DNA of 64,000 nt from Alphaproteobacteria bacterium (GCA_016869515.1 VGDZ01000003.1:18804-82803); one strand, 5' to 3'; positions 27,714 to 62,053 are shown, counted from the first letter of the stretch. Program-made: numbers and translations. Notes: generated by a model from the sequence alone, not told the origin.

Positions 27714-27733
27714 GGCGGATTCTCCTTGCGGCG

Positions 27734-31287: not shown

Positions 31288-31296
31288 GCGCGCACC

Positions 31297-34761: not shown

Positions 34762-34783
34762 GGCATGATCCGCAACCCGCCTT

Positions 34784-34849
34784 GAACCGCGCGGTTCACG
34801 GCCGATCGCCAATGTCCTGGGCCGCGATCGGTCCCGAACCTTGCGGTTC
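34784..34849. promoter_or_regulatory. Two further GAACC-N4-GGTTC palindromes (34784..34797 gaaccgcgcggttc; 34836..34849 gaaccttgcggttc) upstream of the NCS2 permease gene
   Basis: Read directly; same half-sites as the motif upstream of the GntR gene. Confidence 0.45.
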
Positions 34850-34876
34850 AAGACCGATCGATCCCGCCCCTGCCGA

Positions 34877-38055: not shown

Positions 38056-38093
38056 CGATTGGCCCTTGGCGAAGTTCCCTGATCCGGCACTAG

Positions 38094-38124
38094 TATACAA
38101 CATGGTATACAAAGCAACCTATAC
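38094..38124. promoter_or_regulatory. Low-GC divergent promoter region with repeated GTATAC-type GntR-like boxes between the allophanate hydrolase and fdrA genes
   Basis: tagtatacaacatggtatacaaagcaacctatacagatat: GTATAC at 38094 and 38105, CTATAC at 38119. Confidence 0.4.
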
Positions 38125-38154
38125 AGATATTGGGACCGGTGCTAGAGTTTGTTC

Positions 38155-39693: not shown

Positions 39694-41096
39694 ATCCGCT
39701 GCTCTCGGCGCCGCTGTCGGTGCTCAATGTCGGCGTCGGTTCCTTCGCCGACGCCATCGCGTCCCAAGGCGGCACGGCGACGCGAATCGATTGGACCCCG
39801 CCCGCGCAGGGCGATCGGGCCGCCGGCATGGCGCTTGCCCGCTTGGTCAACCATCCCAGGATCGAGGCCGCCAACGCCAAGGCCTATCGAAAGCTTGTGG
39901 CGGCGCAGCCGCGGCTGATCGGAATCGGCGTCGCCGGCAAGACCTTGCCGGGCATAGGCCGGCGCATGATCCTGCACGCCGGGCCGCCGATCGCATGGGC
40001 GCGCATGTGCGGCCCGATGCAGGGCGCCATCATCGGCGCCATCCTGTTCGAGGGCTGGGCGACCAGCGCCGCCAAGGCGCGGGCGCTGGCGGCCAGCGGC
40101 AAGATCGGCTTCGCGCCTTGTCATCATCACGGCGCGGTCGGCCCAATGGCCGGCATCATCAGCCCCTCGATGCCGGTGTGGGCGATCGAGAACGCCGCCG
40201 GCGGCAACCGCACCTACAGCAATCTCAACGAGGGCCTGGGCAAGGTGCTGCGCTTCGGCGCCAACGGCGCCGAAGTGATCGAGCGCTTGCGCTGGATGAG
40301 GACCGTCCTGGCGCCGACCCTGCAGGCCGGCCTCGCGCGCCTCGGTCCGGTCGAACTCAAGCCGCTGATGGCCCAGGCCCTGCACATGGGCGACGAAGTG
40401 CACAACCGCAACGCCGCCGCGACCTCGCTGCTGATCAAGAAGCTGGCGCCGGCGCTGCTCAAGAGCGGCGCGGCATCGGCCGACATCGCCGCCACCATCG
40501 AGTTCATGGCCGGGACCGACCACTTCTTTCTCAACCTGTCGATGGCGGCCTGCAAGGCGATGCTCGACGCCGCGCACGGCGTGCCCTACAGCAGCCTGGT
40601 GACGACCATGGCGCGCAACGGCGTCGATTTCGGGATCCGCGTCGGCGGGCTGGGCCGCCGCTGGTTCACGGCGCCGGCGCCGGTAGTCGACGGACTCTAT
40701 TTCGCCGGCTACGCGATGGCCGACGCCGCCGCCGATCTCGGCGACAGCGCCATCACCGAGACCGCCGGCATCGGCGGCTTCGCCATGGCGGCGGCGCCGG
40801 CGATCGTCAAGTTCGTCGGCGGCACCGCCGCCGATGCCTTGGCCAACACCGTGGCGATGACCCACATCACCCTCGGGCGCAACAACGCCTTCACCCTGCC
40901 GGCGCTGGATTTCGCCGGCACGCCTTGCGGCATCGATGCGCGGCTTGTGGTCGACACCGGCATCCTGCCGGTGATCAACACCGGCATCGCCCACAAGGCG
41001 CCGGGCGTGGGCCAGATCGGTGCCGGCGTCACCCGCGCCCCGCTTGCCTGCTTCACGCAGGCCGTGACGGCGCTGGCAGCCGCGGTCAAGGGCTAG
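39690..41096 (+). CDS. DUF1116-family protein (YlbE-like)
   Basis: ATG overlapping the fdrA stop (ATGA); 468 aa; gene order fdrA-DUF1116-carbamate kinase as in enterobacterial fdrA-ylbE-ylbF-arcC clusters. Confidence 0.7.
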   Translation: MNPLLSAPLSVLNVGVGSFADAIASQGGTATRIDWTPPAQGDRAAGMALARLVNHPRIEAANAKAYRKLVAAQPRLIGIGVAGKTLPGIGRRMILHAGPPIAWARMCGPMQGAIIGAILFEGWATSAAKARALAASGKIGFAPCHHHGAVGPMAGIISPSMPVWAIENAAGGNRTYSNLNEGLGKVLRFGANGAEVIERLRWMRTVLAPTLQAGLARLGPVELKPLMAQALHMGDEVHNRNAAATSLLIKKLAPALLKSGAASADIAATIEFMAGTDHFFLNLSMAACKAMLDAAHGVPYSSLVTTMARNGVDFGIRVGGLGRRWFTAPAPVVDGLYFAGYAMADAAADLGDSAITETAGIGGFAMAAAPAIVKFVGGTAADALANTVAMTHITLGRNNAFTLPALDFAGTPCGIDARLVVDTGILPVINTGIAHKAPGVGQIGAGVTRAPLACFTQAVTALAAAVKG

Positions 41097-41103
41097 CGCC
41101 GTC

Positions 41104-42051
41104 ATGTCGGCGCGCGGTCTGGCGGTGCTGGCGATCGGCGGCAATGCCTTGATCCGCGATCGCCAGCACGAATCGATTCCCGATCAGTCCCGCATGGTCG
41201 AAGCCATCGCCGTCGACATCGCCGACATGATCGTCGAGGGATGGAACGTGGTGGTCACCCACGGCAACGGCCCTCAGGTCGGCTTCATTTTGCGGCGTTC
41301 GGAAATCTCGATCGACGAAGTGCCGCCGGTGCCGATGGACTACGCCGGCGCCGACATCCAGGGCGCGGTCGGTTGGATGTTCGTGCGGGCCTTGCGCAAC
41401 GAATTCCGCCGCCGCGGCATGGCGCGCGAGGCGGTGGCGGTGGTGACGCAGACCGTGGTCGATCGTGCCGATCCGGCCTTCGCCGCGCCGACCAAGCCGA
41501 TCGGTTCGCACATGGACGAAAGCAAGGCCAAGCTCCTTGCTGGCAAGTACGGCTGGACGGTGCGCGAGGATGCCGGGCGCGGCTGGCGGCGGGTGGTGCC
41601 CTCGCCGCGGCCGATCGCCATCGTCGAGGCTGCCGTCATTCGCGACTTGGTCCGGGCCGGCTACGTGGTGGTGGCCTGCGGCGGCGGCGGCATCCCGGTG
41701 GTCAAGGAAGACAACGGCGATCTGCGCGGCGTCGAGGCGGTGATCGACAAGGATCTCGCCTCCAGCCTGCTGGCGCGCAACCTGGGTGCCGACGCGTTGG
41801 TGCTGCCGACCGGCGTCGAGAAAGTCGCGCTCGACTTCAACAAGCCGACCCAGCGCTGGATCGATCGCATGACCCTGGCCGAAGCCAGGCGCCATGCGGC
41901 CGAAGATCAGTTCGACAAGGGCAGCATGGGACCCAAGGTCGCCGCCCTGATCGATTTCGTCGGCGGCGGCGGCAAGCTCGGCCTGATCACCAATCCGCCC
42001 AACCTGCCGCGCGCCTTGCGCGGCGAAACCGGAACCCGCATCGTCGCGTAG
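41104..42051 (+). CDS. arcC: Carbamate kinase
   Basis: Motifs IGGNAL, VTHGNGPQVG, VVACGGGGIPV; 315 aa. Confidence 0.85.
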   Translation: MSARGLAVLAIGGNALIRDRQHESIPDQSRMVEAIAVDIADMIVEGWNVVVTHGNGPQVGFILRRSEISIDEVPPVPMDYAGADIQGAVGWMFVRALRNEFRRRGMAREAVAVVTQTVVDRADPAFAAPTKPIGSHMDESKAKLLAGKYGWTVREDAGRGWRRVVPSPRPIAIVEAAVIRDLVRAGYVVVACGGGGIPVVKEDNGDLRGVEAVIDKDLASSLLARNLGADALVLPTGVEKVALDFNKPTQRWIDRMTLAEARRHAAEDQFDKGSMGPKVAALIDFVGGGGKLGLITNPPNLPRALRGETGTRIVA

Positions 42052-42233: not shown

Positions 42234-43790
42234 TTATTTGCGGTAGGTCCGACCTTTGGGGCCGAGCTGCTCGGGCAAGATGCGATAGGCATCCTCGACC
42301 CAATCGCAAAGCCGTGCGCGGGTTTCGCGCGGATCGATGATGTCGGGCACGCGAAAGCGCTCGGCGGTCAGGAAGGGCGAGGCCAAGTGCTCGTATTTGG
42401 CGTCGAACTCGATCAGGCGCTGCGCGCGCTCCTCGGGCGACAGGCCATCGAGTTCGCGCCGATAGGCGGCGGCGATGCCGCCCTCGAACGGGATCGAACC
42501 CCAGCGCCCCGATGGCCAAGCATAGTGCAAGTTGATGCCCTGCATTCGGGCATAGGCGGTGCCGGCCAGACCGAACAGCCGGCGAATGACGATGGCGCAC
42601 CACGGCACCTTGCTCTGCTCGATCGCCGAGACCACGCGCACCGAGCCGCGGACATTGCCTTGGCGCTCACCCTCGATTCCCACCACCGTGCCGGGCTGAT
42701 CGACGAAATTGACGATCGGCAGATGGAAGGTGTCGCAGAAGTCGACGAAGGTCTCCATTTTCTCGGCCGCCGGGCGATTGAGCCCGCCGCCGAACTTGTA
42801 GGGATCGTTGGCGATGACGCCGACCGGGTAGCCGTCGAGCCGCGCCAGGCAGGTAACCACCGAGCCGCCGAAATTGGGCGTCATCTCGAACACCGAGTCC
42901 CGGTCCATCACCAGTTCGACGATGCGGCGGACCTTGTAGACCTGCCGGCGATCGCGCGGAATGATCGACAGCAGCGCTTCCTCGGCGCGATTGGGGTCGT
43001 CCCCCGATTGCCTGCGCGGCGGCATTTGAAATACCGAATCCGGCACATAGGACAGCCAGCGCCGAATCAGGGCGAAGGCGTGCTCCTCGCTCTCGGCCTC
43101 GTTGTCGATCACGCCCGATTGCCGGGTGTGAAGCGCGGAGCCGCCCAACGCCTCCTTGTCCGGACGCGAGCCCATGCCGCGCTCGACCACCGGCGGCCCG
43201 CCCGCCATGACCTGGCTGGTGCCCTTGACCATGACCGAAAAATGCGCGCAGGCCGCTTTTAGCGCTCCCAGTCCGGCGCAGGGTCCCATGGCGATGGCGG
43301 CGACCGGGATGTAGCCCAGCAAGCCGACCATCTGCCAGGTCGGATAGCCCGGAATCTTGGTCGAGCCCTGCTGCTCGACCAGCCGCACCGAGCCGCCGGC
43401 ACTTTCGACCAGCCGGATCAGCGGCATGCGATGCTCGAAGGCGTAGTTTTCCGAGTAGATCCATTTCTCCGACACCGTCGCCTCGGACGAACCGCCGCGC
43501 ACGGTGAAATCGTCGGCGTCGATCGAGACCTTGCGGCCGTCCAGCCTGGCGGTGCCGATGATGGTGTTGGAGGGACGCACCGCGACCAGCCGATGATTCT
43601 TGTCGTATTCGGCCTTTCCCGCCAGCATGCCGAGTTCCCGCCAGCTGCCCTTGTCGACCAGCCGGTCGATCCGCTCGCGGGCCGTCAGGCGGCCTTCGGC
43701 GTGCTGCCGCTCGATTCCCTCCTTGCCGCCCAGTTCCAACGCGAAGGCACGCCGCCGCTTCAGTTCCTCGACCTCAGGCCCCCAACTCAT
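42234..43790 (-). CDS. Acyl-CoA carboxylase carboxyltransferase subunit (propionyl-CoA carboxylase beta / methylmalonyl-CoA carboxyltransferase 12S-like), paralog 1
   Basis: Start at MSWGPEVEEL (Met 162 of the track ORF); two crotonase-like CT domains (GGSxE, GPCAGLGA, IANDPYKFGG). Confidence 0.85.
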   Translation of the reverse strand: MSWGPEVEELKRRRAFALELGGKEGIERQHAEGRLTARERIDRLVDKGSWRELGMLAGKAEYDKNHRLVAVRPSNTIIGTARLDGRKVSIDADDFTVRGGSSEATVSEKWIYSENYAFEHRMPLIRLVESAGGSVRLVEQQGSTKIPGYPTWQMVGLLGYIPVAAIAMGPCAGLGALKAACAHFSVMVKGTSQVMAGGPPVVERGMGSRPDKEALGGSALHTRQSGVIDNEAESEEHAFALIRRWLSYVPDSVFQMPPRRQSGDDPNRAEEALLSIIPRDRRQVYKVRRIVELVMDRDSVFEMTPNFGGSVVTCLARLDGYPVGVIANDPYKFGGGLNRPAAEKMETFVDFCDTFHLPIVNFVDQPGTVVGIEGERQGNVRGSVRVVSAIEQSKVPWCAIVIRRLFGLAGTAYARMQGINLHYAWPSGRWGSIPFEGGIAAAYRRELDGLSPEERAQRLIEFDAKYEHLASPFLTAERFRVPDIIDPRETRARLCDWVEDAYRILPEQLGPKGRTYRK

Positions 43791-43922
43791 CGTCCCGCTC
43801 CTTCCGCCGAGGGTTCGCCACCGCCGGCCGTATCGTTTTCGGGTTTGCACGTGCGCTTGTTGACAATCATACACGAACAACGTTGACTGAACGCAAGCAT
43901 CGCACGGGAGTTTTGCGCCGCC

Positions 43923-45458
43923 ATGGCATTCGAGAAGCACATCGCCGAGCACGCGCAGCGCCTGGCCAAGGTCAAGGCCATGGGAGGACCGGCCAAGCTC
44001 AAGCGGCTCTCGGACCAGGGACTGCTCAACGCGCGACAGCGGGTCGACTACCTGTTCGATCCCGGCAGTTTCCTGGAGGTCGGAGAATTCGCGGTCTCGG
44101 ATCGCGCCGACGCCAAGGACGACACCCCGGCCGACGGCAAGGTCACCGGCTATGGCCGCATCGACGGCCGCGAGGCGGCGGTGGTGTCGCACGACATCAC
44201 CGTCAAGAGCGCCTCGTCCTCGCCGATCAATGTCCGCAAGATGGCGCATATGCGCCGCGTCTCGCAAAGCCAAGGCATCCCCTTGGTGCTCCTGAACGAA
44301 AGCTCAGGCGCGCGAATTCCCGACACCATGGGCGCGATCGGCACCGGCACGCTTGGCCAGGACCCGTCGCAGTTCGTGCGCTTCCGCGAGAACCCCTATG
44401 TCTCGGCGGTGCTGGGCCCGGCCTTCGGCACCGCCTGCTGGTTCTCGATGCTGTCGGATTTCGTGGTGATGCGGAAGGGCGCGCAGCTGGCGATCTCCAG
44501 CCCGCGGGTGACGTCGATCGCCATCAACCAGCACATCGATCCCGAGGAACTGGCCGGCGCGCGCATGCACCAAGAGGTCACCGGCAAGGTCGATTTCGTG
44601 GTCGATTCCGACCAGGCCGCGATCGACATGGTCAAACGTTTCCTGTCCTACCTTCCCAGCCACCACAACGAATTGCCGCCGGTGGCGGCGGTTCCGGCCG
44701 GTTCGGACGACGCCGCGCGCGGCCTGCTCGACATCGTTCCCGAGGATCGAGCCAAGGTCTACGACGTCCGCAAGGTGATTGCCGCCATCGCCGACACCGG
44801 CAGCGTGCTGCCGCTGAAGGAGAAGTTCGCCCGCACCGCGGTCACTGCGCTCGGGCGCATCGAAGGGCAGACGGTCGGCTTCGTCGCCTCCAATCCGCTG
44901 ATCAAGGCCGGCTCGCTGGATGCCGATTCCTGCGACAAGATCACCACCTTCCTGGTGCTGTGCGATTCCTTCAACATCCCGATCGTCCTGCTGGTCGATA
45001 CCCCGGGGTTCCTGATCGGGGTCGAGGGCGAGCGCAAGAAGGCGCCCGGCCGGGTGATGAACTTCATGGCCGCGCTGCAGATGTGCACGGTGCCCAAGTT
45101 CTCGATCGTCATGCGCAAGAGCTACGGCCAGGCCTATCTCAACATGGGCGGAACGCGCAACACCGACGAGATGCTGGCCTGGTACTGCGCCGATGTCGGC
45201 TTCATGGATCCCAATGTCGGCGTCAACGTGGTCTATGGCGTGACGCGCGAGAAGGAGCCCGAGCGCTTCCAGCAACTGGTCGACGAGATCCGCCGCGGCT
45301 CCGGCCCCTACGACCTGGCGTCGATCTTCGCCGCGCAGAAGGTGATCGATCCGCGCGAAAGCCGCTCGGTGCTGGCGCGCCTGCTGCAGGTCCATCGCAA
45401 GCGCCCCAGCCGCGGCATTGGCAAGCACCATCTGGGCAATTGGCCCACGACCTTCTAG
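43923..45458 (+). CDS. Acyl-CoA carboxylase carboxyltransferase subunit, paralog 2 (divergently transcribed)
   Basis: 511 aa; same two-domain CT architecture as paralog 1 (ITVKSASS, GPAFGTACWFS, VASNPLIKAGSLD). Confidence 0.85.
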   Translation: MAFEKHIAEHAQRLAKVKAMGGPAKLKRLSDQGLLNARQRVDYLFDPGSFLEVGEFAVSDRADAKDDTPADGKVTGYGRIDGREAAVVSHDITVKSASSSPINVRKMAHMRRVSQSQGIPLVLLNESSGARIPDTMGAIGTGTLGQDPSQFVRFRENPYVSAVLGPAFGTACWFSMLSDFVVMRKGAQLAISSPRVTSIAINQHIDPEELAGARMHQEVTGKVDFVVDSDQAAIDMVKRFLSYLPSHHNELPPVAAVPAGSDDAARGLLDIVPEDRAKVYDVRKVIAAIADTGSVLPLKEKFARTAVTALGRIEGQTVGFVASNPLIKAGSLDADSCDKITTFLVLCDSFNIPIVLLVDTPGFLIGVEGERKKAPGRVMNFMAALQMCTVPKFSIVMRKSYGQAYLNMGGTRNTDEMLAWYCADVGFMDPNVGVNVVYGVTREKEPERFQQLVDEIRRGSGPYDLASIFAAQKVIDPRESRSVLARLLQVHRKRPSRGIGKHHLGNWPTTF

Positions 45459-45492
45459 TGGTTTCCGGTCAACCGACAAGTGGAGCGAAAAC

Positions 45493-45714
45493 GTGGCCGT
45501 CGAAAAAGTAAAATCCGAGATCACCGGCAAGGTCTGGAAGCTGATCGCCAAGCCCGGCCAGAAACTGGCCGAAGAAGAGACCATCATCCTGATCGAATCG
45601 ATGAAGATGGAAATCCCGGTGATGGCGCCCGCCGCCTGCACGCTCAAGCGCGTTCTGGTCGGCGAGGGCGACGATGTGGCCGAGGGCCAGGATCTGGCGG
45701 AGATCGAGCTTTGA
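45493..45714 (+). CDS. Small biotin carboxyl-carrier / biotinyl-domain protein (~73 aa)
   Basis: GTG 45493 preceded by a GGAG ribosome-binding site; biotinylation motif IESMKMEIPV. Confidence 0.7.
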   Translation: MAVEKVKSEITGKVWKLIAKPGQKLAEEETIILIESMKMEIPVMAPAACTLKRVLVGEGDDVAEGQDLAEIEL

Positions 45715-45787
45715 CCGGTTCGCGCCGCCGCCGTTTCCGCCCGCCGTGCTAGGCTCCGGTACGATGCCGGCTGCGGGGAATAGTGGC

Positions 45788-46525
45788 ATGAGCAAGACGC
45801 CCTTTCGCGGCGCCGCGGGCGCCTTCGGCCGCGACGACCTGAACTGGACGCCCAGCCGCGTCGCGCAGACATTGTCGCTGTCGGAGCAGATCGCCGGCAA
45901 CGTCGGCAATGCCATCATCAGGGGCGACTACCAGCCCGGCCAGCGCGTGCAGGAACAGGAACTGGCCGACCAGTTCCATGTCAGCCGCGGCCCGGTGCGC
46001 GAGGCGCTGCGGCTGCTGGAGCGCGACGGGCTGGTGCAGATCCATGCCCGCCGCGGCGCCCACGTCACCCAGCTCGGCCGCGACGAGGTCAGCGATCTGT
46101 TCGAGGTGCGGATCGTGCTGATCGGGTTGGCCGCCAAGATCATCGCCGAGAACCGCAATCCCGACGTGGTGCGCGAGATCCGCCGCGGCGTCGAGCAGCT
46201 CGGGCGCCTGGTCAAGGACCGCGCCGGCACCGACAGCTATGTCGGCGCGATCTATCGGCTCAATCTGGTGCTGGCCGAGGGCAGCGGCAATCCCTATCTC
46301 GGCGACATGATCTTTTCGCTGGCGCATCGCACGCTGCGCTATGCCCGGCTGGGCCTGTCGACCGAGGCGCGACGCCAGCAATCGGTGCGAACCTGGCGCC
46401 AGGTGATCGCGGCGATCGAACGCGGCGACGCCGATGCGGCGCGCGCTCAGGCCGAAAAGCTGGTGCGCGCCAGCCGCGACATGGCGGTCAGTCTCTTGCC
46501 CGCGCCGACGTCGAAGCCGGATTAG
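45788..46525 (+). CDS. GntR-family transcriptional regulator (FCD subfamily)
   Basis: wHTH LADQFHVSRGPVREAL; FCD-type C-terminal domain; alternative ATG at 45764. Confidence 0.8.
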   Translation: MSKTPFRGAAGAFGRDDLNWTPSRVAQTLSLSEQIAGNVGNAIIRGDYQPGQRVQEQELADQFHVSRGPVREALRLLERDGLVQIHARRGAHVTQLGRDEVSDLFEVRIVLIGLAAKIIAENRNPDVVREIRRGVEQLGRLVKDRAGTDSYVGAIYRLNLVLAEGSGNPYLGDMIFSLAHRTLRYARLGLSTEARRQQSVRTWRQVIAAIERGDADAARAQAEKLVRASRDMAVSLLPAPTSKPD

Positions 46526-47970
46526 CCGGTCGAGCCGGCGCTGCGCTCGAATCCCGCTACCGCGGCCAGGGCGATTGCGGCCTGGCTCATCTCGTCGAAC
46601 ACCGGAATGCCGAGCGCGACCGCGCGCGCACGATAACCGCGCTTGCGGGCGTCGACCTCGGCCGAGCCGTCGGAGCGCAACACCAGGACCAGATGCGCGG
46701 CGCCGGGATGCCGCGATCGTGCCCGCAGCGCCGCCTGCACCAGGTTCTCGACGAAATCGGCGCGTTGATCGGCCGAGGCGGCGAAGACCGGCAGGTTGAT
46801 GTGCATGACCACCGCGTCGGGCCGCTCGAGCCGCAGCACGGCGTCGAGGACCCGCTCGGCGACGCGGCCTTCGTCCTGGCGCAAGGCCCCGGCCGGGGCG
46901 TCGATCGGATTGACCACGCTCGTGCCGGGCGGCAGCTGCAAGGCCTCCAGCGCCGCGATCGCGTCCGGCGCCATCGCCGCCACCGACAGGCCGGCGCGGG
47001 CGAAGGCGTCGGCCGCCAGCACGCTGGTTCCTCCGCCATTGCCGAACAGCACCACCCGCCGCGTTCCCGCGCCGGGGCGCGGCGCCAGGGTCTGGAAAGC
47101 CAACAGCGTGTCCAGGAACCGATCGAGCGTGCTCGTCATCGCCGCGCCGGTCTGGCGGGCAAGGCCGCTCCAGATGCGGGCATCCGAGGCCAGCGATCCG
47201 GTGTGCGAGGCGGCGGCCTTGCGTCCCTGCTCGGTCTGGCCGCCGAGCAGCAGCACCACCGGCTTGACGCCGCGGGCCGCGCGCATGGCCTCGAAGAAGC
47301 GGCGGCCGTCCTTGACGTCCTCGAGATAGAGCCCGATCGCCCGCGTCGCCGGATCGTCGAGGTAGAATGCCAGCAAATCGGCCGGACCGAGGTCGAGGCT
47401 GTTGCCGATGGTGACCACGCCCGAAAACCCCAAGCCGCGCTGGGCGCCGCGCAAGATGATGTCGACCGCGAGACCGCCCGATTGCGAGACGATGCCGATC
47501 GCGCCCTCGGCCGGCGGCGAACCGCCGACGAAACTGATGCGGCCGCGCGGGCTGTAGGTGCCGAGGCAGTTGGGCCCCAGCAGCCTCACCCCGCTCTCGG
47601 CCACCGCCGCCCGCAGCTTGGCGTCGAGCGCTTGACCCGCAGCGATCTCGCCGAAGCCCGAGGAGATCACTTGGGCGAAACGCAACTTGCCCTTGGCGCC
47701 GGCGATCACCGCCGGCACTTGGGTCGCGCCGACCGCGACATAGGCATAGTCGACCGGCTCCGGCAGCTCGGCAAAGCCGCGCGCGCAGGGCAAGCCCTCG
47801 ATGCTGGCCGCGGTGGGATGAATCGGAACGATCTTGCCGGCGAAACCCAATGCCAGGCTGTGGCGAATGAATTCGTTGCCGGGCGTGATTCCGGTCGCGG
47901 ACGCGCCGATCACCGCGACCGTGCGCGGCGCGAACAACGGCGCAAAGCGCGCGCCGATCGGATCGCTCAT
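46522..47970 (-). CDS. Acyl-CoA synthetase (ADP/NDP-forming) alpha-type CoA-binding subunit
   Basis: 482 aa; CoA-binding N-terminus (VAVIGAS, KIVPIHP) and succinyl-CoA-synthetase-alpha-like ligase domain (GPNCLG, IVSQSGG). Confidence 0.75.
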   Translation of the reverse strand: MSDPIGARFAPLFAPRTVAVIGASATGITPGNEFIRHSLALGFAGKIVPIHPTAASIEGLPCARGFAELPEPVDYAYVAVGATQVPAVIAGAKGKLRFAQVISSGFGEIAAGQALDAKLRAAVAESGVRLLGPNCLGTYSPRGRISFVGGSPPAEGAIGIVSQSGGLAVDIILRGAQRGLGFSGVVTIGNSLDLGPADLLAFYLDDPATRAIGLYLEDVKDGRRFFEAMRAARGVKPVVLLLGGQTEQGRKAAASHTGSLASDARIWSGLARQTGAAMTSTLDRFLDTLLAFQTLAPRPGAGTRRVVLFGNGGGTSVLAADAFARAGLSVAAMAPDAIAALEALQLPPGTSVVNPIDAPAGALRQDEGRVAERVLDAVLRLERPDAVVMHINLPVFAASADQRADFVENLVQAALRARSRHPGAAHLVLVLRSDGSAEVDARKRGYRARAVALGIPVFDEMSQAAIALAAVAGFERSAGSTG

Positions 47971-48677
47971 GCCGGCACGATCCGGGCGTCGCAGGCGACC
48001 GCGCCCCGGGGCGCGACGATCAGCGGATTGACGTCGAGCGATCGAATCGACGCCCCCAGCCGCTCCATCAAACCTCCAGCGCCCCCTACCGCCAGCAGCG
48101 CCGCGACCACTGCCGCTTCGTCAAGGCGGGGACCGCCGCGCGCGCCGCGCAGCAGGGCCACCGCACGCAACTCCTCTAGCATGTCCTTTGCGTCGGCGGG
48201 CGCGACCGGGCAGACGCGAAACGCCACGTCTTCGAACAGTTCGACGAATATCCCGCCCAGCCCGGCCATGATCACAGGACCGAAGCGCGGGTCGACCACG
48301 CCGCCGATCACCATCTCGCAACCGGCCGGCGCGGTCTCCTCGACCAGCAGGCCGTCCAAACCGAGGCCGCGCTCGCGCGCCAGGCGGGCCAAGGCCTCAA
48401 GCGCCTCCAGCAGCGCTGCCGCATCGCTTAGGCCCAGCCGAACGCCCCCGAGATCGCTCTTGTGGACGGCGTCGGGCGAGACCAGCTTGGCCACCAGCGG
48501 GAAGGTCAAGCCCGCGGTCGCCGCGGCCCGCGCCGCCGCCGCCGGATCCGCGCCGACCACGCCCCGCGGAACCGCGATTCCGGCATCGACCAGGATGCGC
48601 TTGGAAGACACTTCGTCCAGCGCGGTACGCCCTTCGGCCCGGGCGGCCGCCACCAATCGCTTGGCGAGGTCCATAGC
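47967..48677 (-). CDS. Acyl-CoA synthetase (ADP-forming) beta-type ATP-grasp subunit
   Basis: Start at MDLAKRL (Met 132 of the track ORF); ATP-grasp-like (FPLVAKLVSPDAVHKSDLGGV); 4-bp overlap with the downstream alpha subunit. Confidence 0.7.
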   Translation of the reverse strand, partial: AMDLAKRLVAAARAEGRTALDEVSSKRILVDAGIAVPRGVVGADPAAAARAAATAGLTFPLVAKLVSPDAVHKSDLGGVRLGLSDAAALLEALEALARLARERGLGLDGLLVEETAPAGCEMVIGGVVDPRFGPVIMAGLGGIFVELFEDVAFRVCPVAPADAKDMLEELRAVALLRGARGGPRLDEAAVVAALLAVGGAGGLMERLGASIRSLDVNPLIVAPRGAVACDARIVPA

Positions 48678-49426
48678 TAGCGACCCCCGCCGACATCGAC
48701 GATCGCCCCGGCGACATAGGACGCGCCGGGAGAGGCCAGCCAGAGAATGGCGTCGGCAACTTCGACGGCGTCGCCGGCGCGCCGCATCGGAATCTGGGTC
48801 TTGGCCTTTTCGACGCGATCGGGCAGCCCTGCCGCGACATGGATCTCGGTATCGATCAGGCCGGGGCGGACGCAATTGACCCGGATGCCCTCGCCGGCCA
48901 GCTCCTGGGCCGCGCCGATGGTGAAGGCATCGAGCGCGCCCTTGCTGGCGGCATAGTCGACCCAAAGACCCGGCGCCCCCACCCGCGCTGCCAGCGAACC
49001 CACCACCACGATCGATCCGCCCTTGCCGCCATGGCGGGTGGACATGCGGCGGATGGCCTCGCGCGCGCACAGAATGACGCCGGTGACGTTGACCGCCAGC
49101 AGGGCATTGATGTCGGCGGCCACGGCCGCTTCGAGGTGCCGCCTGCGGCCACCGGAGGTGCCGGCATTGGCGACCACCGCGTCGATCCGTCCGAATTCGG
49201 CGTCGACGGCAGCGAACATCCGCACGATGTCCGCTTCCTGGGCCATGTCGGCCTGGACGGCGAGCGCGCGACGGCCCGCGGCACGCACGGCCTCGGCCAC
49301 GCCCAGCGCCGCCGGACCGTCGCGCCGGTAGGCGATGGCGACATCCCAGCCGCGCTCGGCCGCCAGACGGGCGGTGGCGGCGCCGATGCCGCGGCTGCCG
49401 CCGGTGACCAGCATCACCCCGGTCAT
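48677..49426 (-). CDS. SDR-family short-chain dehydrogenase/reductase
   Basis: TGGSRGIG cofactor motif, NAG, catalytic YAASKGA (YxxxK). Confidence 0.8.
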   Translation of the reverse strand: MTGVMLVTGGSRGIGAATARLAAERGWDVAIAYRRDGPAALGVAEAVRAAGRRALAVQADMAQEADIVRMFAAVDAEFGRIDAVVANAGTSGGRRRHLEAAVAADINALLAVNVTGVILCAREAIRRMSTRHGGKGGSIVVVGSLAARVGAPGLWVDYAASKGALDAFTIGAAQELAGEGIRVNCVRPGLIDTEIHVAAGLPDRVEKAKTQIPMRRAGDAVEVADAILWLASPGASYVAGAIVDVGGGR

Positions 49427-49467
49427 CGCCACTCCTTCAATTGACGCCTCGCGCCATTGCCAGGACA

Positions 49468-50391
49468 ATGCCGACCCCTATGAACGAGAGTCAACAAGAC
49501 GAATGTCACCCCGAGGCGCCGGCTTGGTTCCGCTGGGCCTTGGCCCAGCCGGTCGAGGCGCGGGAGATCGCCGTTGCCGGCACCGTCATCCGCTATCGCC
49601 GCTGGGGCGGCGCCGGCAAGCCCGGCCTGCTTCTGGTCCACGGCAACGGCGCCCATTCGCGCTGGTGGGATTTCATCGCGCCCTGGTTCGCAAGCACGGC
49701 GACGGTGGCGGCGCTCGACCTGGCGGGCATGGGCGACAGCGGCCAGCGCGCCGACTACACGCCGGAAAGCTACGGCGCCGACATTCGCGCCGTGGCCGGC
49801 GACATGGATGCGGCGGGGCCGATCGATTTGGTGGCGCATAGCTTCGGTGGCCTGGTCGGCGTGGTGGCGGTGCGGGACCGGCCAGACCTGTTCGCGCGCG
49901 TGATGGCGATCGACACCCCTTACGATATGAGGCGGCGCGGCTCGGCGCCGCCGAGTTTCGATCGCAACCCGGCCAAGACCTATTATCCCGATTTCGCCGC
50001 GGCGCGCGCCCGGTTTCGCCTGCTGCCGGCGCAGGACTGCCGCCACGCCTTCATTCTGGATCATGTCGCCCGGCATTCGATCAAGCGCACCGCGGACGGG
50101 TTCTGCTGGAAGTTCGAGGCCAATCCGTGGAATTTCCCCGGCTTCGATCGCGGCTTTTGGAACATGCTGCGCGCGACGGTGCCGATATTGCCGCGCCCGA
50201 TGGCCTTCTTGCGCGGCGCCGACAGCGCGCTTTGTACATCCGAGACCGAGGACGATTGGCGGCGCTTGCGCCCCGAGGCGCCGATCGTCGTCCTGCCCGA
50301 GGCTCGCCATCATGTCTGGCTGGATCAACCGTTGGAGCTGGTGGCGGCGCTCCGTGCTTTGCGGGCCGGGTGGCGCGCCCCAAGCGCATAA
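49468..50391 (+). CDS. Alpha/beta-fold hydrolase
   Basis: HGNGAHS and nucleophile elbow AHSFGG (GxSxG); start ambiguous (TTG 49441, ATG 49468, ATG 49480). Confidence 0.7.
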   Translation: MPTPMNESQQDECHPEAPAWFRWALAQPVEAREIAVAGTVIRYRRWGGAGKPGLLLVHGNGAHSRWWDFIAPWFASTATVAALDLAGMGDSGQRADYTPESYGADIRAVAGDMDAAGPIDLVAHSFGGLVGVVAVRDRPDLFARVMAIDTPYDMRRRGSAPPSFDRNPAKTYYPDFAAARARFRLLPAQDCRHAFILDHVARHSIKRTADGFCWKFEANPWNFPGFDRGFWNMLRATVPILPRPMAFLRGADSALCTSETEDDWRRLRPEAPIVVLPEARHHVWLDQPLELVAALRALRAGWRAPSA

Positions 50392-50537
50392 GCCGTCCCT
50401 CGCCGATATTGGCGACGAGCAAGTCGCGCCGGCCGCCGCTGTCCATCGCCATGCCGTTGGGATCGCTGCCCATGGTCCCGATCAAGGCCTGATCGCCGTC
50501 GGGACCGATCCTGACCGCGCCGCCGCGACCTTGGCGG

Positions 50538-51449
50538 TCACGGGGCTAGGGCATGATCGCTCGACGCGATGCGGGCTAGACGGACGACGTCGTCGATCGA
50601 ATCCGCCACGCGCGCGCCGGCCGCGCGCAGCATGGCGCGCTTTTCAGTGGCCGAATCGCCCGAGCCGGCGATCATCGCCGCGACGTGGCCGAAACTGACG
50701 CCGGCGGGATAGCGTTCCTGGAAGCGCCCGGCAATCAGGGCGATTATCGGCTTGGTCAGTTCGCCGGCGCGCATGGCCTGCGCGACGCCGGCCTCGTTGT
50801 CGGTCCCGGGTTCGCCGAAGATCACCATGGCGCGGGTTTCCGGGTCGGCCTGAAACAGGCGCAGATACTCGACCATCTTGCGGCCGGTCAGCGGATCTCC
50901 GCCCATCGAGATGCAGGTCGAGACGCCGAGACCGACTTGCTTGAGCGCGACCGCAAGCTCCGCCGACATCCCGCCCGAGCGCGACACGATTCCGACCGCA
51001 CCGGGGACATAGAGATCGGCGGTGCGATCGCCGCCGATCCCGCCGAGCCGGCATTTCCCCGGAGAAATCGCGCCGTTGGTGTTGAAGCCGATCAAAGTGG
51101 TGCCGGCTGTCCGCGCCAGCGCGATCGCCGCGGCGGCATCGTGCCGCGGCACGTTCTCGGCGGTCGCCAAGATGACCTTGACGCCGGCCTCGACCGCCTC
51201 GGTCACCGCATCCTTGACGCCGCGCGCCGGCACATAGAGCACGCTGGCATCCGCCCCCGTCGCGGCGACGGCGGCAGCCACCGTATCGAACACCGGCACG
51301 CCCTCGACCACCTCGCCGCCGCGACCCGGGGTCACCCCGGCGACGATGCGCGTGCCGTAGGCCAGGCAATAGCGGGTATCGAACCGGCCCTGATTGCCGG
51401 TGATGCCCTGCACGACGACGCGCGTGTCGCGATCGATCAGGATGCTCAC
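50538..51449 (-). CDS. Succinyl-CoA synthetase alpha subunit-like (SucD-like CoA ligase alpha)
   Basis: GTG 51449 overlapping the upstream stop (GTGA); motifs VVVQGITGNQG, GIVSRSGG, catalytic-His context GHVAAMIAGSG. Confidence 0.8.
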   Translation of the reverse strand: MSILIDRDTRVVVQGITGNQGRFDTRYCLAYGTRIVAGVTPGRGGEVVEGVPVFDTVAAAVAATGADASVLYVPARGVKDAVTEAVEAGVKVILATAENVPRHDAAAAIALARTAGTTLIGFNTNGAISPGKCRLGGIGGDRTADLYVPGAVGIVSRSGGMSAELAVALKQVGLGVSTCISMGGDPLTGRKMVEYLRLFQADPETRAMVIFGEPGTDNEAGVAQAMRAGELTKPIIALIAGRFQERYPAGVSFGHVAAMIAGSGDSATEKRAMLRAAGARVADSIDDVVRLARIASSDHALAP

Positions 51450-52642
51450 GATCCCGGCCCCCGCTGGGCCATGGCCGCCAACGCGGCGCGAACCGCGTCG
51501 CTCAGGCTGGCCTCCCGCGGCAGGTATTGGATCCCCGGCAGCGTCGCCGCGATGGCGCGCGCTTCCGCCTCCTTCGGTCCGAACAACCGCACCACGATCG
51601 GAAAACGCCGTGGATCGATGGCCTTTTCGCGCAGCACCGACACCAAAGCCTCGATCACCAAGTCGCACGGCGCCATTTGCAGGAAGTTGTACCCGATCAG
51701 CAGCCCGCGGACCCTGGGGTTGGACAGCATGGCATCGATCAGGGCACGCGGCTTGTCGACCGTCGGTGCCGGCGACAGGTCGGTATGGCAAGCCGGGCGC
51801 CCGCCAAGATCGACCACGAGGTCGTGCTGCACCAGTCCGGCCCCGCCTCCGGCGACCATCAACGCAAGATCGCCGTCCAACTCGGTGTATCGGATGGCGC
51901 CGCCGGAGAATTTCCGATCGGCCGCGATCACGGCGCGCTCGCGCGCGTTCCGTGCCTGAAGCAGGTCGGCGGCTTCCAGCGACTGCCATTCGGGATGCCG
52001 GAACAAGGCCGCATCGTCGATCTCGACCATGGCTCCGACCAGGGTCAATGTCTCAGCCGCGTCGAGCGCGATCGGGTTGAGCTCGAGCATAAGGGCGTCG
52101 CCGGCACGGAAAGCCTCGCCTAGGGAGGCCGTCAATCGCGCCAACTTGGGCAACAAGGGGCCCGAGATCCCTGCCTCGGTCCAAAGCGCCGTCGCCTCCC
52201 ACGGCCGCAAGCCGCGCGCCGGATCGATATCGCGGGTGGCGATCGCGGCAGGACTGTCGCGATGCACCTGTTCGATCTCGACTCCGCCTTCGCGGCAGGC
52301 CATGACCCGCGGTAGGATCGAGCCGAAAGCGAAGCCGAGATAGAATTCGCGGACGATGGCGACGGCGCGCTCGACATAGACCCGCTCGACCGCATGCCCG
52401 GCGATGCTCCGCCCCAGCAGGGCAGCGGCGGCGGCCTCGGCTTCCGACGGGGTGGTCGCCAGCGCCACCCCGCCCGCCTTGCCGCGACGGCCGGCGGGTA
52501 TCAGCGCCTTGACCGCAACCCGGCCGCCGAATCGCGCCGCGGCCTCCGCGACCGCCGCAGGCGAGGATGCCGCCATGCCTTCGGGAACCGGAAGGCCCTG
52601 GCCGCGCAGCCACGCCTTGGCATGGTCCTCGGTCAAGCGCAT
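51446..52642 (-). CDS. Succinyl-CoA synthetase beta subunit-like (SucC-like ATP-grasp CoA ligase beta)
   Basis: 398 aa; ATP-grasp N-terminus (VAVKALIPAGRRGKAGGV) and ligase C-terminal domain. Confidence 0.8.
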   Translation of the reverse strand: MRLTEDHAKAWLRGQGLPVPEGMAASSPAAVAEAAARFGGRVAVKALIPAGRRGKAGGVALATTPSEAEAAAAALLGRSIAGHAVERVYVERAVAIVREFYLGFAFGSILPRVMACREGGVEIEQVHRDSPAAIATRDIDPARGLRPWEATALWTEAGISGPLLPKLARLTASLGEAFRAGDALMLELNPIALDAAETLTLVGAMVEIDDAALFRHPEWQSLEAADLLQARNARERAVIAADRKFSGGAIRYTELDGDLALMVAGGGAGLVQHDLVVDLGGRPACHTDLSPAPTVDKPRALIDAMLSNPRVRGLLIGYNFLQMAPCDLVIEALVSVLREKAIDPRRFPIVVRLFGPKEAEARAIAATLPGIQYLPREASLSDAVRAALAAMAQRGPGS

Positions 52643-52845
52643 GCGTGGAATTCCGCCTTTGGCATCGTCTGAGTTTGAGCTATTGTATTCGTGTTAACAA
52701 GCTGCCTGTTGACGCCAAAGCGGGACATCGGAAAGGATGTGCCCGCCAGGCCGCGGACCGCCGCGGGAAAGTCGGCGTCGACGGGTTGACAGGGCCGCGG
52801 CCAGCGCCGGAGAGTCGGCGCTGCGCGGGAGAAGGGGGAAAGGCA

Positions 52846-53865
52846 ATGACCAATCGTTCGTTCCGAGGGGCAATCGTCCATGCCGTCGTGGCGGCATTCT
52901 CCTTGTGCTGCGTCGCCGCAAGCGCGCAAGAGCGTTTGGCCCGCATCTCCTATCATTGGGCGCCCGACCACGAAAGCGCGCAGCACTCGAAAAAGTTCAC
53001 CGACCTGGCGAATGCCGCCCTGGGCGGCAAGCTCAAGATCGATACGTTTCACTCCGGCCAGCTCTACACCATCCGCCAGATCGTCGGCGCGCTGTCGGCC
53101 GGATCGGTCGAGATGGGCGGGGTGGTGACCTTCAACCAATTCACCGCCATCGACAAGGACTGGAACATCACCGTCTTTCCGGGCTACTTCAAATCGATCG
53201 AGCACCAGCGCAAGTTCTTCGACGAAGTGCCGGAGGGCATCGCGCTGCGCAAGCGGGTGCTGGAGAAGACCGGGCTGGTGCACATCGCCTACGTTCCCGT
53301 CGGCCCCTACGTCACCTTCTCGACCAAGAGCGAGATGAAGACCGTGGCCAGCATGGCCGGGCTCAAGGCCCGCGCCTTGGCGCCCAACGAACGGCCCGGC
53401 TATGTCGCCCGCAAGATGGACGTGGTGTCGCTGTCGACCGAGGAGATCTTCACGGCGCTGCAAAGCGGCATGGTCGACACGCTTTCGACCGTGCCGACGG
53501 CGGTCAAGGCATACAACTGGTGGCAGTATCTGAAATACGTCCAACTGCCCTATTCGGTCTATGCCGATTCCGAGATCATGGCCAACGGCAAGTGGTTCGC
53601 CGGGCTGCCGGCCGACATGCAGAAATCCCTGCTTGAAATCGGTGCCAGGATTTCCGAGGAAGCCACTCGCAACACCATGGCCGGCAACGACGCGGCGCTG
53701 AAGGAGATGGTCGAGAAGCACGGCGGCAAGATCACGCATCTCGAGGGCGCGGCCCTGGCCGAGTTCCAGAAGCTGGATCGCGAGCGTACCGAGGTCGAAT
53801 TGGCCAAGATGGTGTCGCCCGAGATTTTGGCCGCGGCGCGGCGCTATATCGGCCGAACCAACTGA
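52846..53865 (+). CDS. dctP: TRAP transporter substrate-binding protein (DctP family)
   Basis: ATG 52846 preceded by a GAAGGGGGAAAGG ribosome-binding site; signal peptide; DctP-like fold. Confidence 0.85.
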   Translation: MTNRSFRGAIVHAVVAAFSLCCVAASAQERLARISYHWAPDHESAQHSKKFTDLANAALGGKLKIDTFHSGQLYTIRQIVGALSAGSVEMGGVVTFNQFTAIDKDWNITVFPGYFKSIEHQRKFFDEVPEGIALRKRVLEKTGLVHIAYVPVGPYVTFSTKSEMKTVASMAGLKARALAPNERPGYVARKMDVVSLSTEEIFTALQSGMVDTLSTVPTAVKAYNWWQYLKYVQLPYSVYADSEIMANGKWFAGLPADMQKSLLEIGARISEEATRNTMAGNDAALKEMVEKHGGKITHLEGAALAEFQKLDRERTEVELAKMVSPEILAAARRYIGRTN

Positions 53866-53889
53866 TCGTCCAGGGGCCGGCGATCGGCG

Positions 53890-54420
53890 ATGCGGTTTCT
53901 GGGTCGGCTCAAGGGCATCAACGATGTCCTTGAGCGGGTGGTGCGAGGGCTCGGGGGTGCGCTGATCGCGGTCATCCTGTTTGCCTTGTTCGCCAGCGCC
54001 GCGACCCGCTATGTCACCGGCATCGGCTACGACTGGCTGACCGAATTGCCGCCGCAATTGCTGCCGTGGATCGTGTTTCCGATGATCGGCGTGCTGCTGC
54101 GCCATGACGGCCATGTCACGGTCGATGTGCTGCCGCATTTCCTGCACGGCCGCAACCTGACCCGGCTTCGCGCCGTGGTATTCGCGTTCTCGACCCTGGC
54201 GTGCCTCGCCTTCGCGATCTTCGGCGTCGACGCCGTCGGGTTCTATCAGCGCCTTGGCCAGCGGACCGCGACCGAAGTCGAGATTCCGCTGTGGCTGCTG
54301 TACCTGTCCTTTCCCATCGGCTTCTTCATGGCGGCGAGCTTTACCGGCGAAGCTCTGCTGCGGCTGTTGGTCAGGCGCGAGGGCGATGCGCCCGTGGCCG
54401 CGCCCGGCGGGCGGGCATGA
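53890..54420 (+). CDS. dctQ: TRAP transporter small permease (DctQ family)
   Basis: 176 aa with 4 TM segments between dctP and dctM. Confidence 0.8.
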   Translation: MRFLGRLKGINDVLERVVRGLGGALIAVILFALFASAATRYVTGIGYDWLTELPPQLLPWIVFPMIGVLLRHDGHVTVDVLPHFLHGRNLTRLRAVVFAFSTLACLAFAIFGVDAVGFYQRLGQRTATEVEIPLWLLYLSFPIGFFMAASFTGEALLRLLVRREGDAPVAAPGGRA

Positions 54421-55682
54421 TCGCGCTGTTTGGCCTGTCGGCCTTGGCGCTGGCGATCCTGTCGGTGCCGATCTTCCTGGTCTTCGGCGTGTCCTCCACC
54501 GCGGTGGCATTGTGGGGCCTCAAGCTGCCCTCGGCCATGCTGATGCAGATCAGCTTTGACGCCATGACCAAGCAGGTGCTGGTGGCGATCCCGTTGTTTC
54601 TGTTTGCCGGCAACGTCATGCTCAAGGGCGGCACCGCCAGGCGCTTGGTCGATCTCAGCTTGGCGGCCGTCGGCCACCTGCCCGGCGGGTTGGCGCTGGC
54701 GATGATCCTGGCGATGGCGTTTTTCGCGGCATTCTGCGGCTCGATCCTGGCCGCGATCGGGGCGATCGGCACGGTGCTGCTGCCGACCATGATCGAGCGC
54801 GGCTATCCCAAGGCCTTCGTCATCGTGCTGGCGGCCTGCGCCGCCATCATCGAGGCTCTGATCCCGCCTTCCAATACCGCCATCCTCTATTCGGCCATCA
54901 CCCATGTCCCGGTAACCAAGACTTTCGCCGCGGGAGTGCTTCCCGGGCTGGTGCTGATGACGTTGCTCATGCTGTACACGCTCTTGGTGTGCCGGAACAT
55001 GCCGCGCCCGCCGCGGGCGTCTTGGCCGGTCTTGCGCGACGCCGTGCTCGGTGCCCTGCCGGCGCTGTTGACGCCGGTGATCATCATCGGCGGCATCTAT
55101 GGCGGCTTGTTCACCGCCGCCGAATCCGCCGCCGTGGCCGGCGTCTGGGGCATTGTCCTCGGCCGTTACATCTACCGCGAGCTGACCCTGAAGGGCTTGT
55201 GGGAGGCGTTGAAGGCGACCGCCGAGTCGACCACGGTGATTTTCGCCATCATCGCCATGGCGATCTTCCTGTCGATCGTCCTGACCTACACCAAGACGCC
55301 CCAGGCGATCGTCGAATACATGGTCCAGCTGGGCATCACCCAGGTCACGTTCTTCCTCGCCGCCGGACTGACGCTGCTGTTTCTCGGCGCATTCATCGAA
55401 GTGGTGCCGGTTTTCTATTTGACCCTGCCGATTTTCATTCCGGTCATCCACTCCCTGAAGATCGACACGCTGCAGTTCTACGTCTTTTTCACCGGCTTGG
55501 TCGGGATCGGCCTGTTGACGCCGCCGGTCTGCGTCGGCGTCTACATGGCGGCGTCGGTGGTGCGCGAGCCGCCCGAGCGGGTCTTCAAGGCGGTGCCGGG
55601 CTTCATCGTCATCGGCATCATCTACGCCGCGATCATGGCCAGCTTCCCCTGGCTGGCGACGTGGCTTCCCTCGAAGCTCTAG
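54417..55682 (+). CDS. dctM: TRAP transporter large permease (DctM family)
   Basis: ATG overlapping the dctQ stop (ATGA); 421-aa polytopic membrane protein. Confidence 0.85.
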   Translation: MIALFGLSALALAILSVPIFLVFGVSSTAVALWGLKLPSAMLMQISFDAMTKQVLVAIPLFLFAGNVMLKGGTARRLVDLSLAAVGHLPGGLALAMILAMAFFAAFCGSILAAIGAIGTVLLPTMIERGYPKAFVIVLAACAAIIEALIPPSNTAILYSAITHVPVTKTFAAGVLPGLVLMTLLMLYTLLVCRNMPRPPRASWPVLRDAVLGALPALLTPVIIIGGIYGGLFTAAESAAVAGVWGIVLGRYIYRELTLKGLWEALKATAESTTVIFAIIAMAIFLSIVLTYTKTPQAIVEYMVQLGITQVTFFLAAGLTLLFLGAFIEVVPVFYLTLPIFIPVIHSLKIDTLQFYVFFTGLVGIGLLTPPVCVGVYMAASVVREPPERVFKAVPGFIVIGIIYAAIMASFPWLATWLPSKL

Positions 55683-56842: not shown

Positions 56843-57039
56843 CGACCCGGCAGGCACACGAACCCCTTGTACGAACGTTGTTATTTGAATTTGGATTATA
56901 ACACACAGAAATCTGATCAGAAAATGCTTTATTTACGAATGTCGTTCTGTTATAGGCCATTTTATGAATAACCAGGTGGCGCCGCTCAACGCCAAAAAAG
57001 CTGAACGGAACCGCGGAACCGACTGGGAGCAAGTTCGCA

Positions 57040-60827: not shown

Positions 60828-60880
60828 TGGCACAACCGACAGCACGACCAACCAGGGAAACGGAAAAGGAGGCTAGTGAC

Positions 60881-62035: not shown

Positions 62036-62053
62036 TCGGAAGCGAATCGAGTC

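Follow-up and report, generated by a model that had tools for sequence, protein, structure and literature searches.

Two carboxyltransferases and a minimal biotin carrier in an alphaproteobacterial gene module: probable parts of an acyl-CoA carboxylase with its biotin carboxylase encoded elsewhere

A 64,000-nt stretch from an alphaproteobacterial metagenome-assembled genome (MAG), here called the window and used for all positions below (GC about 0.67), carries two divergently transcribed carboxyltransferase (CT) genes and a gene for a very small biotin carboxyl carrier protein (BCCP), with no biotin carboxylase (BC) beside them. We consider it probable that the CTs and the carrier of this locus are components of an acyl-CoA carboxylase with several subunits, dependent on ATP and biotin, to which the BC is supplied in trans. 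The genes form part of a conserved module for organic-acid utilisation (42234..55682), probably under the control of a GntR protein. A sequence-only reading of the same DNA had taken the absence of a BC to indicate a BC-independent decarboxylase or transcarboxylase; the comparison with related loci given below speaks for a different interpretation, and most likely the missing BC marks no new kind of enzyme here. The central features are as follows.

42234..43790, minus strand: CT1, 518 aa, predicted PccB/12S class, CT1 lineage (Pfam PF01039, E=2e-91)
43856..43867, no strand: operator-like palindrome CTTGTTGACAAT, about 65 nt from the start codons of CT1 and CT2
43923..45458, plus strand: CT2, 511 aa, predicted PccB/12S class, CT2 lineage (PF01039, E=1e-97)
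45493..45714, plus strand: BCCP, stand-alone biotinyl protein, 73 aa (PF00364, E=5e-13)

Genes were called by GC bias at third codon positions (GC3), and Pfam was run on essentially all of the GC3-supported genes in the window. Two divergent CT genes of about 515 aa had been proposed, and the two genes agree with this description. They are 29% identical, and both are intact, full-length Carboxyl_trans proteins with the two-domain PF01039 organisation of the CT subunits of biotin-dependent acyl-CoA carboxylases. CT2 is 100% identical to an NCBI protein labelled 'methylmalonyl-CoA carboxyltransferase' (Alphaproteobacteria bacterium MAG). Among proteins in the PDB, the top matches to CT1 are beta subunits of propionyl-CoA carboxylase (PCC), at about 260 bits, with the 12S protein (1on3) at 231 bits, while the top match to CT2 is 1vrg (304 bits), with 12S at 269 bits. 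Each CT is about 32% identical to S. coelicolor PccB. The beta subunits of methylcrotonyl-CoA and geranyl-CoA carboxylases (MCC and GCC) are distant from both (145-175 bits), and among the solved relatives GcdA is the one furthest from both (81-90 bits). The best NCBIfam model for the two proteins is TIGR01117 mmdA, at 310 and 343 bits, which does not reach its cut-off of 998.8. On these comparisons both CTs are predicted members of the PccB/12S/MmdA class, and this placement, far from the MCC and GCC beta subunits and from GcdA, points to alpha-carboxylation of an acyl-CoA.

The active sites differ from that of PccB. The PccB pair G182-G183 is G-L in CT1 (motif CAGLGA) and G-T in CT2 (GPAFGT), the pair G419-A420 is L-A in CT1 (FGLAG) and Q-A in CT2 (YGQAYLNM), and the position of D422 is occupied by T in CT1 and L in CT2. 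The canonical oxyanion-hole pairs are therefore missing, one residue of each being replaced throughout the family. The CT1 motifs are kept in 27-30 of 31 orthologues (CAGLGA in 30 of them), and YGQAYLNM is invariant in all 33 orthologues of CT2; being nearly invariant, these variants are signatures of the family and not marks of decay. Oxyanion holes use backbone amides, so that catalysis by CT1 and CT2 may well be retained. At columns that are otherwise invariant, CT1 shows no private substitution and CT2 shows five, the most of the 33 orthologues (median 0), a count that is inflated because the set contains no close sister (nearest 78%); most of the five are conservative or PccB-like, and W213A gives the residue found in PccB.

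The carrier is as small as had been described, with the motif IESMKMEIPV and an end at 45714, and follows CT2 after a gap of 34 nt (35 nt had been claimed). It starts with GTG at 45493, behind a GGAG Shine-Dalgarno sequence. Its ESMKME sequence conforms to the (A/S)MKM attachment motif, and Lys38 (codon 45604-45606, within SMKME) is predicted to carry the biotin. The NCBIfam matches, PRK08225 and PRK05889, are both under cut-off.

No BC was found anywhere in the window, which goes further than the claim that none lies within 10 kb on either side. A six-frame scan of the 64 kb for the BC hallmarks NxRxQVEH and GGGG(K/R)G was empty, tblastn of two cluster-type BCs against the window gave a best E of only 0.07, and there is no BC domain among the Pfam-annotated window genes; an ATP-grasp BC component is thus missing from the whole 64 kb. 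The possibility that a BC close by forms a conventional carboxylase operon with the CTs, raised by the sequence-only reading itself, is in its literal form not realised, there being no BC near the cluster or in the window. This layout is not the product of a mis-join in the MAG, since a Logan contig assembled independently from SRR7985589 (L001) has the same gene order as the window: an AA_kinase gene, CT1 divergent from CT2-BCCP-GntR, and then an acyl-CoA synthetase (ACS).

The picture changes when related loci are considered. A scan with CT2, using one genome per species, gave matches in 556 species; the loci retrieved number 80 and are referred to by L numbers. The core comparison set comprises the 26 loci that have a CT2 identity of at least 60% and flanks of at least 8 kb on each side; five related loci (L002, L004, L005, L086 and L089) were annotated with Pfam. 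Of the core loci, 24 have a small BCCP and 22 a dedicated BC within 10 kb, with one further locus having it about 9 kb away. The BC of the relatives has 452-454 aa, and in every locus inspected its gene is distinct from that of BCCP. The 73-aa BCCP orthologue stands directly after CT2 in L002, L005 and L086 and before BC in L089. The position of BC varies: it may directly follow CT1 (Oceanibacterium, Rhodobacteraceae), follow CT2-BCCP (Burkholderiaceae), or be next to the ACS genes. In L005 the order is CT2-BCCP-GntR-BC, followed by a short-chain dehydrogenase/reductase (SDR). In L018 (Lautropia), one of two loci that at first seemed to have neither BC nor BCCP, a string of BCCP, BC, SDR, the beta and alpha genes of a succinyl-CoA synthetase (SCS)-like ligase, GntR and a fused ACS lies about 9 kb from CT1 and CT2. 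In the cultured Oceanibacterium hippocampi, BC-CT1 is divergent from CT2-BCCP-GntR, which is followed by an energy-coupling factor (ECF) biotin transporter (BioY, ABC_tran and CbiQ components); the presence of this transporter in the same gene string indicates biotin dependence, and is counted in favour of the carboxylase interpretation.

Given that the gene module normally includes its own BC, the missing BC is most likely encoded elsewhere in this genome. The proposal of a BC-independent enzyme is therefore not supported, in view both of the BC of the relatives, which is under the same operator, and of the absence of partner subunits: neither an OAD_beta membrane subunit nor a 5S-type (HMGL/PYC_OADA) subunit was found among the annotated genes of the window or in the five Pfam-annotated related loci.

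The operator links these genes. The CT1/CT2 intergenic region (43791..43922) is 132 bp long, close to the 130 bp of the sequence-only reading; its AT-richness is slight, with a GC of 0.61 against about 0.66 in the surrounding 2-kb segments. The TTGACA reported at about 43859 is present (43859-43864), and its interpretation as a sigma-70 promoter was abandoned, because a consensus scan gives no -10 partner and the hexamer is the core of the palindrome CTTGTTGACAAT. The family consensus of the palindrome is ATTGT(T/C)GACAAT, with a GT-N2-AC core, and the module operator is also given as ATTGTYGACAAT. CTTGTTGACAAT is the sole exact match to the core within the window. In 27 of 36 orthologous loci, which span Alpha- and Betaproteobacteria, the palindrome is found no more than 260 bp upstream of CT2, at a distance of about 65 nt from the start codons of the two CTs. 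It also occurs 57-62 nt upstream of BC (L007, L014 and L023), 68-88 nt upstream of BCCP (L007, L011, L014 and L023), upstream of BCCP-BC in Lautropia, and between the SCS beta gene and a third CT in L032. Its location upstream of BC places BC in one regulon with the CTs in these relatives. With BC in 22 of the 26 loci, and a palindrome common to the CTs, BC and BCCP, the CT2 family is a predicted ATP-dependent carboxylase regulon. The probable binder of the palindrome is the GntR/FCD protein encoded next to BCCP, a role suggested by the GT-N2-AC core and the adjacent position.

The remainder of the module, with one inserted gene, has the following features.

45674..46525, plus strand: GntR/FCD regulator (PF00392, PF07729), true start probably downstream of 45674
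46522..47970, minus strand: ACSa, alpha subunit of an ADP(NDP)-forming acyl-CoA synthetase (PF13380, PF13607)
47967..48677, minus strand: ACSb, ATP-grasp beta subunit of an ADP-forming acyl-CoA synthetase (PF13549, E=4e-56)
48677..49468, minus strand: SDR (PF13561, PF00106)
49441..50391, plus strand: alpha/beta-hydrolase (PF12697, PF00561), window-specific and outside the conserved module
50538..51449, minus strand: SCS-like ligase alpha, 303 aa (SucD-like, E=4e-68), GTG start overlapping the beta stop
51446..52642, minus strand: SCS-like ligase beta, 398 aa (PF08442), GC3-supported open reading frame (ORF)
52691..52701, no strand: possible second, degenerate operator GTGTTAACAAG, read directly in the divergent region between SCS beta and DctP
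52846..53865, plus strand: DctP, solute-binding protein of a tripartite ATP-independent periplasmic (TRAP) transporter, 339 aa with signal peptide (PF03480)
53890..54420, plus strand: DctQ, TRAP small membrane subunit (PF04290)
54417..55682, plus strand: DctM, TRAP large membrane subunit (PF06808, E=3.5e-81), ATG at 54417 overlapping the DctQ stop

The window thus holds all of the conserved parts except BC, plus the hydrolase. All of the ORFs of the module are intact and show a strong coding GC3 bias, and none of its proteins has an equivalog-level match in NCBIfam. In the core set, CT1 is present in 23 loci, where it co-occurs with CT2 under a common operator, TRAP genes in 19, the ADP-forming ACS in 17, GntR in 16 (in each case after CT2-BCCP), SDR in 14 (50-65% identity) and the SCS-like ligase in 11. 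ORF clustering revealed no further strongly conserved family in the orthologous loci.

CoA ligases had been predicted nearby, and they exist, as ADP-forming types and not AMP-forming ones. ACSa matches the NDP-forming acyl-CoA synthetase 4xyl in the PDB (E=4.5e-57). The nearest NCBIfam families of ACSb are 3-hydroxypropionate- and 4-hydroxybutyrate-CoA ligases, and the ACS is about equally close to these and to generic NDP-forming synthetases, all of them far under cut-off. The alpha and beta proteins of the SCS-like ligase are respectively 68% and 55% identical, over their full length, to the Lautropia orthologues; an odd split and fusion (219 aa plus 483 aa) was considered for these genes and dropped in favour of the canonical 398-aa beta and 303-aa alpha. 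DctP is 66% identical to its Lautropia orthologue; the PDB offers no close liganded structure for it, only distant relatives (E ~1e-16). GTGTTAACAAG is a palindrome with two mismatches to the operator core and may act as a weaker second operator, although it lacks statistical support. The alpha/beta-hydrolase has no counterpart in the 80 related loci (tblastn). It adjoins the ACSb-SDR genes, and in L015-L017 the BC is next to ACSb at that place, which suggests that this spot is a site of rearrangement or replacement.

The two CT lineages are associated with different ligases. Counted over all loci at a distance of up to 1.5 kb, CT2-type genes are accompanied by an ADP-forming ACS in 34 cases and never by an SCS-like ligase, and CT1-type genes by an SCS-like ligase in 13 cases and never by an ACS. 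This pairing suggests that CT1 and CT2 serve two acyl-CoA substrates while sharing one BCCP, and it bears out the earlier idea of two CTs for two ligase-supplied partners. In Bordetella petrii and others there are operons with the order BC-CT-BCCP-ACSb-ACSa, in which the single CT is of the CT2 lineage (56% identity); subunits of the CT2 type are thus able to work in the absence of CT1. It is equally possible that CT1 and CT2 would form separate hexamers or one mixed hexamer: the two co-occur under one operator, and the separate arrangement is compatible with the CT2 type being found alone with BC and BCCP and with the different ligases of the two lineages.

A third CT of the CT1 lineage (about 44-48% identity to CT1; 45% is the figure for the Rhodobacteraceae) is seen in L029-L036 and L086, from Rhodobacteraceae and related bacteria, at about 5.2-6.9 kb in locus coordinates. 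It is divergent from the SCS-like genes, giving three CTs per one BC and BCCP.

On the basis of these observations we propose the following pathway, in which the direction of the reaction and the assignment of each thioester to a CT are inferred. A carboxylate would enter through the TRAP transporter, and CoA thioesters would be made from it by the two ADP-forming ligases, the NDP-forming ACS and the SCS-like enzyme. The 73-aa BCCP would be carboxylated by BC at the expense of ATP, and would pass the CO2 to both PccB-class CTs, CT2 taking the product of the ACS and CT1 that of the SCS-like ligase, with carboxylation at the alpha-carbon of each acyl-CoA. The SDR would handle a pathway intermediate, and the GntR/FCD protein would act as a repressor that governs the regulon through the palindrome. 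In this genome, BC would come either from a relocated dedicated gene or from the housekeeping AccC.

Several points weigh against the carboxylase interpretation. The BC is invisible in 64 kb, and its supply in trans is assumed and not observed. The layout recurs: L011 and L012 likewise have a BCCP and no BC within 10 kb (they and the window are the only such cases), and recurring BC-less layouts could in principle function as such. The chemistry of the CTs could differ from that of PCC, given the loss of one glycine from each canonical oxyanion-hole pair. Finally, the family has no characterised member, and a full-text literature search on the module composition returned nothing relevant.

The absence of BC from the window and from the vicinity of the cluster in L011 and L012 invites the alternative that the system is a BC-independent acyl-CoA:acyl-CoA transcarboxylase. 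CT1 would decarboxylate a dicarboxylyl-CoA of the malonyl- or methylmalonyl type, formed by the SCS-like ligase, and load BCCP, from which CT2 would carboxylate the product of the ACS. The gene content is compatible with this: the two ancient CT lineages, each physically tied to a different CoA ligase, have a single 73-aa BCCP and a single operator in common, and the SCS-like ligase is of a dicarboxylate-activating kind. However, BC is present under the same operator in 22 of the 24 orthologous loci that have a BCCP, which indicates that the family uses ATP-dependent carboxylation, and in the Bordetella-type operons a CT of the CT2 type works with BC in the absence of CT1. There is also no evident energetic gain from the exchange of a carboxyl group between two acyl-CoAs, and we know of no precedent for a transcarboxylase made from two crotonase-fold CTs. 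We therefore regard this mechanism as unlikely, and its specific form, in which CT1, BCCP and CT2 work as a BC-free transcarboxylase both here and in BC-less loci such as L011 and L012, as a little less likely still. If true, it would be the first transcarboxylase composed of two crotonase-fold carboxyltransferases.

A GcdA/MmdA-type biotin-dependent decarboxylase acting on a dicarboxylyl-CoA, whether Na+-pumping or soluble, appears very unlikely. A CT with a small biotin carrier and no BC does resemble the soluble parts of such enzymes, and mmdA is the top NCBIfam model for both CTs, but the mmdA scores are far under the cut-off, GcdA is the remotest of the solved relatives, the OAD_beta-type subunit is missing both here and in the five annotated related loci, and the orthologous clusters have BC. 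The hosts of CT2 relatives include Reyranella, Rhodobacteraceae, Burkholderiaceae and Limnohabitans, lineages that are mostly aerobic heterotrophs and not fermenters. It is also improbable that the cluster is a non-functional remnant, which lost its BC by rearrangement and is now decaying. Such a history would account for the lack of BC where relatives keep it, for the window-specific hydrolase near ACSb-SDR at what is the BC site in L015-L017, and for the private-substitution count of CT2. Against it, the ORFs of the module are intact with a strong GC3 bias, CT1 has no private substitutions, the changes in CT2 are of the mild and over-counted kind noted above, and the cluster has kept its active-site motifs, its biotinylation motif and its operator. 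The ATP-dependent carboxylase with BC in trans thus remains the probable explanation.

The proposed carboxylase can be compared with several known systems. It resembles the multi-subunit acyl-CoA and propionyl-CoA carboxylases whose BC, BCCP and PccB-type CT are separate proteins, such as the archaeal AccA/AccB/PccB type, in its crotonase-fold, two-domain CTs of about 510-520 aa, its stand-alone BCCP with an MKM motif and the stand-alone BC of about 452 aa found in orthologous loci. By contrast with these, its CTs are only about 32% identical to PccB (S. coelicolor PccB being the CT reference), there are two CT paralogues per system (three in Rhodobacteraceae), the BCCP is a bare 73-aa biotinyl domain, the oxyanion-hole pairs are altered family-wide, the genes stand among those for a TRAP transporter and two ADP-forming CoA ligases, and BC is absent at this locus.

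The mycobacterial AccA3/AccD4/AccD5 system gives a structural precedent for several CTs drawing on a single BC/BCCP. In it, one BC/BCCP serves two PccB-class CTs of different acyl-CoA specificity, in a complex, (AccD4)2(AccD5)4-AccA3-AccE, in which BC and BCCP are fused in AccA3 and the epsilon subunit AccE organises the hexamer (PMC13012033, PMC13612425). There, too, the gene for BC-BCCP need not lie next to those for the CTs. The differences are that BC and BCCP are separate here, and that the mycobacterial role is biosynthetic, whereas the context here looks catabolic or assimilatory; no search aimed at an AccE-like gene was made.

The Propionibacterium 12S/5S/1.3S transcarboxylase also combines a 12S-type CT with a small biotinyl subunit at a locus without BC. 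In the window, however, there is no 5S and the second CT is of the crotonase fold, and a transcarboxylase operates without any BC, whereas the orthologous clusters carry one under the same operator. The Na+-translocating GcdABCD and MmdABCDE enzymes likewise have a CT alpha subunit and a small biotin carrier without BC, but the membrane beta subunit is missing here, GcdA is distant, the MmdA cut-off is missed and the orthologues have BC.

A likeness is also provided by two megaplasmid clusters, on Cupriavidus necator N-1 pBB2 (L087) and Variovorax sp. SRS16 plasmid 4 (L088), which have a CT2-lineage CT (54-55% identity), a 73-aa BCCP, a 451-aa BC and, as here, several CT paralogues per BC and BCCP. 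Each CT adjoins an acid-activating enzyme and a solute-binding protein, although these are CaiB-type CoA-transferases and TctC-type binding proteins and not ADP-forming ligases and TRAP components. The repeat unit is a TctC binding protein, a CaiB CoA-transferase and a carboxyl transferase, all generically annotated. NZ_LR594669.1 has five CT matches, four of them in the L088 stretch, around a single BC and 73-aa BCCP. The megaplasmid clusters look like a modular, multi-substrate carboxylase system.

Other genes in the window were also annotated. A nitrogen-catabolism cluster (34000-42051) converges on CT1. Its genes are as follows.

34000-34761: GntR
34877-36229, minus strand: xanthine/uracil-type permease
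36226-38112, minus strand: allophanate hydrolase with AH_C
38149-39693: FdrA-like protein
39690-41096: AllG oxamate carbamoyltransferase subunit
41104-42051: carbamate kinase, above the NCBIfam PRK12352 cut-off

The cluster resembles the oxalurate branch (allFGH-allK) of E. coli together with allophanate hydrolase; no separate AllH/DUF2877 gene was detected in it. A functional link of the FdrA-AllG-carbamate kinase and allophanate hydrolase genes to the CTs was considered, since BC is known to accept carbamoyl phosphate as an alternative substrate, and was rejected, these genes being absent beside the CTs in all 80 related loci.

Beside the TRAP genes are an IclR gene (56051-56857, minus strand) and genes for hydantoinase A (57040-59142) and B (59139-60827), a pair that represents an ATP-dependent oxoprolinase/caprolactamase/acetone-carboxylase-like enzyme, followed by a Leu/Ile/Val-type binding protein and permease (60827-62984). 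Further away there are two aconitase-family large subunits with a gene of the phosphoenolpyruvate (PEP)-mutase/isocitrate-lyase family between them (19916-21439; 26712-27860, minus strand; 28741-31944), one of the large subunits having an adjacent small subunit (31297-31944). These genes suggest another organic-acid pathway, methylcitrate- or isopropylmalate-like. At about 2516-7776, downstream of ABC-transporter genes, are three paralogous genes of the AstE/AspA-type desuccinylase/aspartoacylase kind and an amidohydrolase; the GC3 call missed one of the three (about 2516-3508), which is seen only among the genes called on Logan contig L090.

With the apparent BC-less enzyme mostly explained in this way, what remains is a large and unstudied family of proteobacterial biotin carboxylase modules, present in about 556 species, cultured carriers of which include Oceanibacterium hippocampi, Lutimaribacter degradans, Bordetella petrii and Cupriavidus necator N-1. 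The family is distinguished by its two or three ancient CT lineages, whose active-site motifs are non-canonical and each of which has its own ADP-forming ligase, together with one minimal BCCP and one conserved operator. The operator provides a simple handle for locating the regulon, the missing BC included, in any genome. The substrates, once identified, would add new carboxylation reactions to the repertoire of biotin enzymes, and would allow the annotation of hundreds of genes whose present label is 'methylmalonyl-CoA carboxyltransferase' or 'carboxyl transferase domain-containing protein'.

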